DNA from: Wickerhamiella versatilis
Taxonomy: Eukaryota
Length of the DNA: 64,000 nt
Reading direction: 5' to 3'
Assembly (NCBI GenBank): GCA_030867685.1
Contig: JAQOWU010000008.1
Location: 3,720,001-3,784,000, forward strand
The first letter of the stretch is position 1; every line of letters starts with the position of its first letter. Below, piece after piece: positions 38,957 through 39,973 of the stretch. The notes under the pieces are model-generated. The model ran no database searches, was not told the origin of the DNA, and saw only the letters and a list, made by a program, of their open reading frames with translations. A program made the translations under genes and the position numbers.

Positions 38957-39973
38957 ATGTCCCAAGTTAAAGTTGGAATCAACGGTTTTGGTCGCATTGG
39001 TCGTCTTGTACTTCGTAATGCTCTGAAAAACCCCGACGTTGAAGTGGTAGCGGTGAATAACACCTCGATTACGCCAAGCTACGCGGCATACCTTTTCAAA
39101 TATGATTCTACACATGGGCGATTTGAAGGAGATGTCGATAGTAAAGAAGATTCTATTGTCATTAACGGAAAGGCGATAAAAGTTTTTGCAATAAGGGAGC
39201 CTGAAAATATACCGTGGCAGGCTGTTGGTGCAGATTATATAGTGGAGTCAACAGGTAAATTTACAACTGTTGAAGGAGCGGAGTTGCATCTCAAGGCAGG
39301 TGCGAAAAAAGTCGTCATTACCGCACCGTCCAAGGATGCACCAATGTTTGTCTGTGGTGTTAATCTTGACGCCTACGACCCCCGCTACACAGTAGTATCC
39401 AACGCCTCCTGTACCACTAATGCACTTGCACCGCTATGTAAGGTGATTAACGACGAGTTTGGAATAGCTGAGGGCCTTATGACAACGGCTCATTCAATGA
39501 CTGCCACACAAGCAACTGTTGACAGTTCTTCACAACGCGACTGGCGAGGTGGCCGTACTGCCTCAGCAAACATCATCCCTTCCACTACTGGTGCAGCCAA
39601 AGCTGTGGGAAAAGTAATTCCTGCCCTCAATGGCAAACTTACTGGAATGGCATTTCGTGTGCCCACGACTGACGTATCTGTAGTCGATCTCACTGTGAAT
39701 CTCCAGAAATCTGTAACATACGATGATATTAAATCAGCCATCAAAAAGGCTTCCCGTGGGCCTCTAAAGGGCATCCTGGACTATACTGAGGATTCTGTGG
39801 TATCTTCAGATTTCCGTGGAGATACGCACTCATCTGTTTTCGACAGCACTGCTGGAATTTTACTCAATGACCATTTTGTCAAACTGATAAGCTGGTATGA
39901 CAATGAAAATGGCTATTCTGCTAGGGTTGTAGATCTTGTTGTTGCAATCGCAAAAAAAGATCATAGCATTTAG
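38957..39973 (+). CDS. Glyceraldehyde-3-phosphate dehydrogenase, atypical paralogue (candidate NADP-utilising)
   Basis: [28 protein letters not shown]. First ATG is at 38957. Confidence 0.93.

Follow-up and report, generated by a model that had tools for sequence, protein, structure and literature searches.

Natural fungal glyceraldehyde-3-phosphate dehydrogenases (GAPDHs) that accept NADP are rare, and the characterised cases are named as Gdp1 of Kluyveromyces lactis and GpdC of Aspergillus nidulans. Gdp1 (KLLA0F09141g) is reported to be a phosphorylating GAPDH that uses NAD+ and NADP+ beside the NAD-specific Tdh isoforms (PMC8776025, PMC11502334). Its gene is described as glucose-repressed, with ~10% of the TDH promoter strength on ethanol, and the enzyme is enough for gluconeogenesis in a strain that lacks both TDH genes. 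Reported identities are ~56% to the Tdh isoforms (PMC8776025) and 54% to GpdA of A. nidulans (PMC11502334). GpdC is described as preferring NADP+, with a Km of 47 µM as against 420 µM for NAD+. It is induced by nitrosative stress and is more tolerant of NO donors (PMC11502334).

The structural basis of NADP use has been described for plastid enzymes. In Chlamydomonas GAPA, Ser33 and Ser188 form hydrogen bonds to the 2'-phosphate of NADP, and Arg77 forms a salt bridge to it (PMC9287727). Position 188 is reported to be nearly always serine in both plastid NADP lineages. One of them, GapC1, is derived from the cytosolic NAD-type GapC and often carries Ser or Thr at 187 and a non-acidic residue at 32; chloroplast GapA keeps Asp32 (PMC3728087). 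Table 2 of the same paper lists 17 sites at which the NAD-type cytosolic and the NADP-type plastid GAPDHs are predicted, or have been shown, to diverge in function (28, 29, 32, 33, 34, 35, 74, 75, 76, 77, 79, 146, 153, 183, 188, 191 and 195). Cofactor use has also been altered by mutagenesis, as compiled in PMC9145139. Changes at 32 and 187/188 of Bacillus GAPDH, and the combination D35G/L36T/T37K/P192S in Corynebacterium glutamicum, are reported to result in the use of both cofactors. For Escherichia coli GapA, G188T/P189K alone is listed with an NADP activity of 5.27 U/mg. The exchange D34N, which corresponds to Asp32→Asn, left only 0.043 U/mg of an NAD activity of 19.88 U/mg, with an NADP activity of <0.01 U/mg (PMC9145139).

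The gene described here is located at positions 38957..39973 on the plus strand of the window, i.e. the whole stretch of 64,000 nucleotides of Wickerhamiella versatilis DNA that was analysed. It is an intron-less open reading frame from ATG at 38957 to TAG at 39971-39973 and encodes a GAPDH-like protein of 338 amino acids plus stop, P0001. Pfam assigns Gp_dh_N (PF00044) to residues 4-104 (2.3e-40, 137 bits, profile 1-100 of 101) and Gp_dh_C (PF02800) to residues 157-314 (2.7e-69, 232 bits, profile 1-158 of 158). Both domains are full-length, which places the protein among the phosphorylating GAPDHs. Residues 4-334 are colinear with solved eukaryotic GAPDHs, the top match being 7u4s_A (4.8e-153). 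PDB entries 1dbv-4dbv, which represent the Bacillus mutants, are also among the structure matches. Because the alignment is colinear from residue 4 on, an intron or a wrongly called start was rejected, and so was an organelle-targeted form, for lack of an N-terminal extension. A 30-residue N-terminal extension in the homologue P0003 looks like an upstream in-frame reading-frame call. Sites are given below in classical GAPDH numbering, to which three is added for the residue number in P0001; the offset was verified at Cys149, His176, Arg77, Phe99, Arg231 and Asn313.

P0001 was compared with its best 120 homologues among 5.8 billion clustered proteins, a set of 121. Alignment retained 115 sequences, among them 112 canonical rows. 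The other six (P0004, P0007, P0008, P0011, P0078 and P0096) were excluded because of their length; all of them have Asp32 and Gly-Pro-Ser. P0001 and P0003 both carry the catalytic Cys149 and His176 found in 112/112 canonical rows, and the same is true of the substrate and phosphate sites Thr179, Thr208, Gly209, Arg231 and Asn313. Tyr311 is likewise kept in P0001 and P0003.

Differences appear in the cofactor pocket. The adenosine-ribose-binding loop (residues 34-37, positions 39056..39067, plus strand) reads Asn31-Asn32-Thr33-Ser34 in place of the canonical Asn-Asp-Pro-Phe. A first-pass annotation made from the letters alone had read an asparagine at the Asp32 position and a VDSSS motif in the S-loop, and both observations are correct to the base. 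Codon 39059-39061 is AAC and specifies Asn35 of P0001; codons 39524-39532 are AGT TCT TCA, Ser-Ser-Ser, with TCT at 39527-39529 in the Pro188 position. Asp32-Pro33-Phe34 is found in 118 of the 121 compared proteins, and the remaining three, P0001 included, are variant. Among the best 120 homologues, the Asn-Asn-Thr-Ser loop occurs only in P0002 (99% identical to P0001) and P0003 (85%), both known only from assemblies of public runs; Asn32, Thr33 and Ser34 are common to all three. At Ile76-Arg77 (residues 79-80, 39191..39196, plus strand), Arg77 is retained and its acidic neighbour Glu76, present in 107/112 canonical rows, is lost. The S-loop segment (residues 186-194, canonical 183-191; 39512..39538, plus strand) carries Ala183, Ser187, Ser188 and Arg191. 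The canonical residues are Lys183 (111/112), Gly187, Pro188 (112/112) and Lys191 (112/112). P0003 reads Gly-Ser-Ser in the S-loop and so has kept Gly187. In the active-site helix CTTNA (residues 152-156, 39410..39424, plus strand), Cys149 is kept (112/112 canonical) and Cys153 is replaced by alanine.

P0001 departs from NAD-specific GAPDHs at two of their marks. Asp32, the residue of all 112 aligned canonical and all six length-dropped proteins, is Asn, and Gly187 with Pro188 has become Ser187 with Ser188. The 2'-phosphate ligands of NADP-accepting GAPDHs, a hydroxyl at 33 together with Ser188 and Arg77, are found as Thr33, Ser188 and Arg77. The first-pass annotation had proposed a coordinated NADP-type signature, which proves broader than the two motifs it was built on: P0001 also carries Pro33→Thr, Phe34→Ser, Glu76→Ile, Lys183→Ala, Lys191→Arg, Val98→Lys and Cys153→Ala. 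As a whole, its interpretation is partly supported.

Clade-specific changes were defined as columns at least 90% conserved in the 112 canonical GAPDHs and altered in all three variants. That degree of conservation applies to 201 of the 338 columns, and 16 of these 201 are changed: Asp32→Asn, Pro33→Thr, Phe34→Ser, Met43→Leu, Glu76→Ile, Val98→Lys/Arg, Lys104→Gly/Thr, Ser119→Thr, Cys153→Ala, Ala158→Cys, Val175→Ala, Lys183→Ala/Thr, Pro188→Ser, Lys191→Arg, Ser207→Thr and Arg245→Asn/Ser. Columns 32, 33, 34, 188 and 191 are 100% invariant in the canonical rows. Half of the 16 changes (32, 33, 34, 76, 153, 183, 188 and 191) fall on the 17 sites tabulated in PMC3728087. For this overlap the hypergeometric probability is 6.6e-8 when all 338 positions are counted. 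Restricted to the 201 conserved columns, 14 of which are sites of that table, it is 5.4e-7.

Loss of invariant NAD-binding residues, together with the long branch and the low expression reported below, is also what a decaying or non-catalytic (moonlighting) duplicate with an eroding cofactor site might present. This explanation is very unlikely. The reading frame is intact in three sequences from two species-level lineages, and all checked catalytic and phosphate-site residues are retained. Both lineages carry identical replacements, which correspond to residues of NADP enzymes and are not random. Divergence within the clade avoids the conserved columns: P0001 and P0003 differ in 11/201 conserved and 41/137 variable columns (odds ratio 0.14, Fisher P 1.2e-9). 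The clade therefore still obeys the constraints that a working GAPDH places on its sites, which indicates purifying selection on the gene in at least two species, as far as the aligned proteins can tell.

The most probable reading, with a probability of about two in three, is that P0001 is a catalytically competent, auxiliary phosphorylating GAPDH of the tetramer type, with an adenosine pocket remodelled for NADP(H). Replacement of Asp32 by Asn would take away a carboxylate whose role is to bind the NAD 2'-OH and to keep a 2'-phosphate out. Pro33→Thr and Pro188→Ser would place hydroxyls at the two positions that hydrogen-bond the 2'-phosphate in Chlamydomonas GAPA, with Ser188 predicted to reach over the R axis from the neighbouring subunit. 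The salt-bridge partner Arg77 is retained, next to an Ile in place of the acidic Glu76. Phe34→Ser and Gly187→Ser would open and polarise the pocket, and Lys191→Arg matches the plastid S-loop. An enzyme of this kind should work with either cofactor or favour NADP. Asn32 alone is weak evidence because E. coli D34N gained no NADP activity and GapA keeps Asp32, and on that residue alone P0001 might be no more than an inefficient NAD enzyme; judged by these analogues, loss of Asp32 is neither necessary nor sufficient for NADP use. The case for NADP use lies in the combination with 33, 188, 187, 76 and 191.

The same changes could belong to an NAD-dependent specialised isoenzyme, tolerant of oxidants, nitrosative stress or inhibitors, in which they lower the affinity for NAD or alter regulation and bring no useful NADP activity. 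The E. coli D34N enzyme, which lost NAD activity with no gain for NADP, is reported to behave in this manner (PMC9145139). Cys153 is the vicinal cysteine of a two-cysteine H2O2 switch, described for human C156 (PMC9102624), and is Ala in 3/3 clade members. Fungal extra GAPDHs with roles in stress or self-resistance have been described in A. nidulans (GpdC) and A. oryzae (GpdB/HepG) (PMC11502334), and the low, possibly conditional expression of the gene would suit such a role. Yet the changes cluster at the 2'-position ligands (33 and 188, with 77 kept) and not around the catalytic cysteine. Nor is the loss of Cys153 clade-specific: the canonical rows carry Cys (104), Gly (7) or Ala (1) at this position, and the 8/112 without Cys153 include P0012 and P0016, the nearest canonical rows. 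GpdC itself is reported to prefer NADP, so that stress tolerance and NADP use are compatible (PMC11502334). A specialised enzyme confined to NAD is thus improbable, at roughly the odds of one face of a die. The loss of Cys153 may add oxidant tolerance.

Expression was assessed by mapping raw RNA reads of four runs with the same species label to positions 25500-43000 of the window. Runs X21-X23 are from one sample and X24 is from another study, in all two samples and two studies, and ~two thirds of the mapped reads are ≥99% identical. Summed depth in the GAPDH-like gene (bin 38932-39515) was 58 in X21, 115 in X22, 80 in X23 and 48 in X24. The gene of a thiamine pyrophosphate (TPP) decarboxylase, pyruvate-decarboxylase-like and called Aro10 in the first-pass annotation, reached ~8470, about 8530-8730, ~9740 and ~6290 in the same order (bin 26668-27251). 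The GAPDH-like gene is therefore transcribed, but 76-147x below it in the four runs, at roughly 1%. The best named match of the decarboxylase is a partial 'pyruvate decarboxylase' of Starmerella bombicola (51%), followed by Sugiyamaella and Blastobotrys proteins (40-43%). Bins of the neighbouring gene UBR1 had summed depths of ~60-95 in X21-X23 and ~13-49 in X24, about the level of the GAPDH-like gene. Those of the tyrosyl-tRNA synthetase gene reached ~245-300 and ~83-105, respectively, and the GAPDH-like gene was 2-5x lower in X21-X23 and ~1.7-2.2x lower in X24. The upstream intergenic region (38358..38956, 599 bp, no strand assigned), presumed to hold the promoter, is essentially untranscribed, with a summed depth of 0.9-3.9 across the four runs in bin 38348-38931.

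Codon usage of the GAPDH-like gene is at background level, with an effective number of codons (ENC) of 53.9 and a GC3 of 0.378. The decarboxylase gene, with ENC 46.3 and GC3 0.502, is the most biased of the 26 open reading frames scored (ENC range 46-61). A codon bias weaker than that of the decarboxylase gene, as the first-pass annotation had it, is thus borne out. The main glycolytic GAPDH of a yeast is expected to combine very high expression with strong codon bias; the GAPDH-like gene has neither. The earlier view of a non-housekeeping enzyme agrees with this depth and codon usage.

An organism in which P0001 is the only or main GAPDH, serving glycolysis with both cofactors, would also be consistent with a search of the 64-kb window by tblastn with two canonical GAPDHs, which found a single GAPDH locus, that of P0001 itself, and no second gene. 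This is the least probable of the explanations considered, with only a very slim chance. The RNA depth lies far under that of the decarboxylase and also under that of the tyrosyl-tRNA synthetase, the codon bias is that of the background, and the phylogeny described next points the same way. At ~1% of the decarboxylase depth, the gene is not credible as the sole GAPDH of a fermenting yeast. From this expression level, a separate main canonical GAPDH is inferred to exist, which makes P0001 a paralogue.

A maximum-likelihood tree of 48 rows was calculated with IQ-TREE under LG+C20+F+G4. The three variants form one clade (support 100/100) on a stem of 0.39, the longest inner branch of the tree and hardly that of a main glycolytic enzyme. 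In this tree, the clade nests inside the budding-yeast cytosolic GAPDHs other than those of Lipomycetaceae. It is joined weakly (86/89) to the canonical proteins P0012, P0016 and P0114, which are known only from run assemblies. P0012 and P0016, the nearest rows, have the canonical Asp-Pro-Phe and are 91% identical to each other, in parallel to the 85% between P0001 and P0003. Such a pattern would be expected if both pairs came from the same two species, with the variant evolving faster, and it argues against P0001 as the only GAPDH. P0001 is 71-75% identical to canonical yeast GAPDHs. An origin of the variant within the budding-yeast cytosolic GAPDHs, with fast evolution along one stem branch, belongs to the reading favoured above and shares its likelihood.

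The distribution appears narrow. In the annotated proteome of W. sorbophila, only the canonical GAPDH P0007 is among the best 120 matches, which suggests that the variant is narrowly distributed. A protein search restricted to residues 22-62, with 69 candidates scored, returned no Asn-Asn-Thr-Ser member beyond P0002 and P0003; one JGI protein, P0476, reads NNTRG at the loop. A scan of JGI metagenome contigs with P0001 kept 80 loci, mostly on 1-2 kb contigs, with best identities of 59-66% and no close relative. Most of the runs in which DNA of the window occurs have a food or food-fermentation metagenome label. Together with the matches of the decarboxylase, this points to a yeast in or close to the Wickerhamiella/Starmerella group. 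Among 150 representatives at 50% identity, 88 carry Asp32, 36 carry another residue and 26 are unaligned at this position. Ten of the 36 were looked up; the named clusters were those of a weevil and a Clostridia bacterium, and Gdp1 was not among them. Gdp1 has probably been merged into a canonical 50% cluster.

The physiological role is less clearly indicated. The GAPDH-like gene is flanked by UBR1 and the tyrosyl-tRNA synthetase gene. ATP-citrate lyase is encoded 12 kb away, in an unrelated row of genes. The first-pass annotation had linked the enzyme to NADPH supply for lipogenesis or polyol formation. This link finds no backing at the locus, and the low expression speaks against a bulk supply of NADPH in the sampled conditions; a role in lipogenesis or polyol formation is speculation. 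Because expression is low, a conditional role is favoured over bulk supply. Possible functions are tied to specific carbon sources, to stress or to NADPH-driven gluconeogenesis. Candidate reactions would be a conditional production of NADPH from triose phosphate or, in the other direction, NADPH-driven gluconeogenesis as in Bacillus subtilis GapB and K. lactis Gdp1. Members of the Wickerhamiella/Starmerella clade are reported to have a mannitol dehydrogenase that depends on NADPH, and alcohol dehydrogenases that work with either cofactor (PMC12461148). These enzymes would be natural sinks for glycolytic NADPH. The main texts of PMC11140947 and PMC12461148, on Wickerhamiella/Starmerella metabolism, mention neither GAPDH nor glyceraldehyde. 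A literature search combining names of the clade with GAPDH and NADPH gave, among the matches listed, none that deals with an isoenzyme of this kind.

Taken together, P0001 would be a functional isoenzyme, restricted to one lineage and expressed at a low level, whose pocket converges on those of plastid enzymes and admits NADP(H); the two-in-three estimate applies equally to this description. Its use of NADP is a well-founded prediction from residue patterns, and P0001 would be a new, probably independent addition to the GAPDH isoenzymes that accept NADP in fungi, a known class. More tentative, at somewhat less than even odds, is the proposal of a third, independent fungal origin of an NADP(H)-using GAPDH, recent and from an ordinary cytosolic yeast enzyme, with a ligand set convergent with plastid GapA and GapC1. 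If the prediction is true, a protein 71-75% identical to ordinary yeast GAPDH would illustrate in compact form how small a number of changes can switch the cofactor, and would show clear-cut convergence with plastid enzymes. On the proposal of a third origin, it would also add a conditional NADP-linked step to lower glycolysis or gluconeogenesis, in a lineage with NADPH-linked mannitol formation and dual-cofactor alcohol dehydrogenases. Gdp1 is a standard tool for NADPH supply in engineered yeasts, and in metabolic engineering P0001 may turn out to be more active or better tolerated.

Among the described systems, P0001 resembles GpdC and Gdp1 in being an auxiliary, weakly expressed isoenzyme. 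The comparison with Gdp1, already drawn in the first-pass annotation, is apt as an analogy, since Gdp1 is also weakly and conditionally expressed and is not the main glycolytic enzyme. The two differ in identity to the canonical enzymes, 71-75% to canonical yeast GAPDHs for P0001 against the reported ~56% to the Tdh isoforms for Gdp1. The higher value suggests a separate, younger origin. The engineered GAPDHs of B. stearothermophilus and B. subtilis (D32 with L187/P188), C. glutamicum and E. coli are altered at the same positions, 32, 33, 34 and 187/188. They are laboratory mutants, mostly with reduced activity, whereas the combination in P0001 is natural, extends to 76, 183 and 191, and is conserved between species. 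Thr33, Ser188 and Arg77 of P0001 match the three 2'-phosphate ligands of Chlamydomonas GAPA, which has Ser33. A hydroxyl at 33, Ser188, Arg77 and Arg191 are shared with plastid GapA/B and GapC1, and Ser187 and a non-acidic residue at 32 with chromalveolate GapC1. Unlike the plastid enzymes, P0001 is without a plastid context, regulation by CP12 or thioredoxin, and Arg183, which is Ala in P0001. GapA has Asp32 where P0001 has Asn32, and P0001 belongs by descent to the fungal cytosolic lineage.

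The ATP-citrate lyase subunit with CoA-ligase and citrate-synthase domains (51797-53650, + strand) and the aldehyde dehydrogenase (57051-58646, - strand) are encoded 12-17 kb downstream of the GAPDH gene. No functional link of the GAPDH gene to either of the two is apparent in the gene row of the window. Positions 5920-13769 on the + strand hold a tandem array of three paralogous genes for sugar transporters (Sugar_tr/MFS, 629-641 aa), all in the same orientation. Among the GAPDH homologues, the cluster of P0009 includes P0122, a UniRef sequence labelled Ictalurus punctatus (catfish). 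It grouped in the tree with the yeast Sugiyamaella (support 94/87), and probably represents a yeast contamination within fish data.

The tyrosyl-tRNA synthetase was called as a mechanical ORF (40207-41469, - strand). The first in-frame ATG is at 41469; downstream of it, at 41375-41377, lie the starts or ends of many RNA molecules. Translation probably initiates at a later methionine, and at least 26 codons at the start of this ORF are likely untranslated.

A small gene (32497-32758, + strand) that is absent from the ORF list resembles, and may encode, QCR9 (cytochrome bc1 complex subunit 9). A 49-nt GT..AG intron (32500-32548) immediately follows the ATG. The junction 32498>32548 was covered by 157-213 spliced reads per run in X21-X23, three RNA runs of one sample, and by 389 in X24, a run from another study; the RNA depth over the gene was approximately 190-250.

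The RNA-sequenced strain differs from the strain of the window by roughly 1%. Fixed single-base differences are scattered throughout the RNA-covered region (25500-43000). In all four RNA runs, 69 nt within 27734-27804, in the 3′ region past a decarboxylase gene, are replaced by 7 different nucleotides.

This gene (25802-27559, + strand) encodes a TPP-dependent 2-oxoacid decarboxylase. It showed by far the highest expression in the 17.5 kb with RNA coverage (summed depth about 6000-9700) and the strongest codon bias among the 26 scored ORFs of the window (ENC 46.3). The best named match was a partial 'pyruvate decarboxylase' from Starmerella bombicola (51%). For the Wickerhamiella/Starmerella clade, PMC12461148 proposes an Aro10-type enzyme as the fermentative pyruvate decarboxylase. 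The decarboxylase of the window, which may be of Aro10- or Pdc-type, agrees with this idea.
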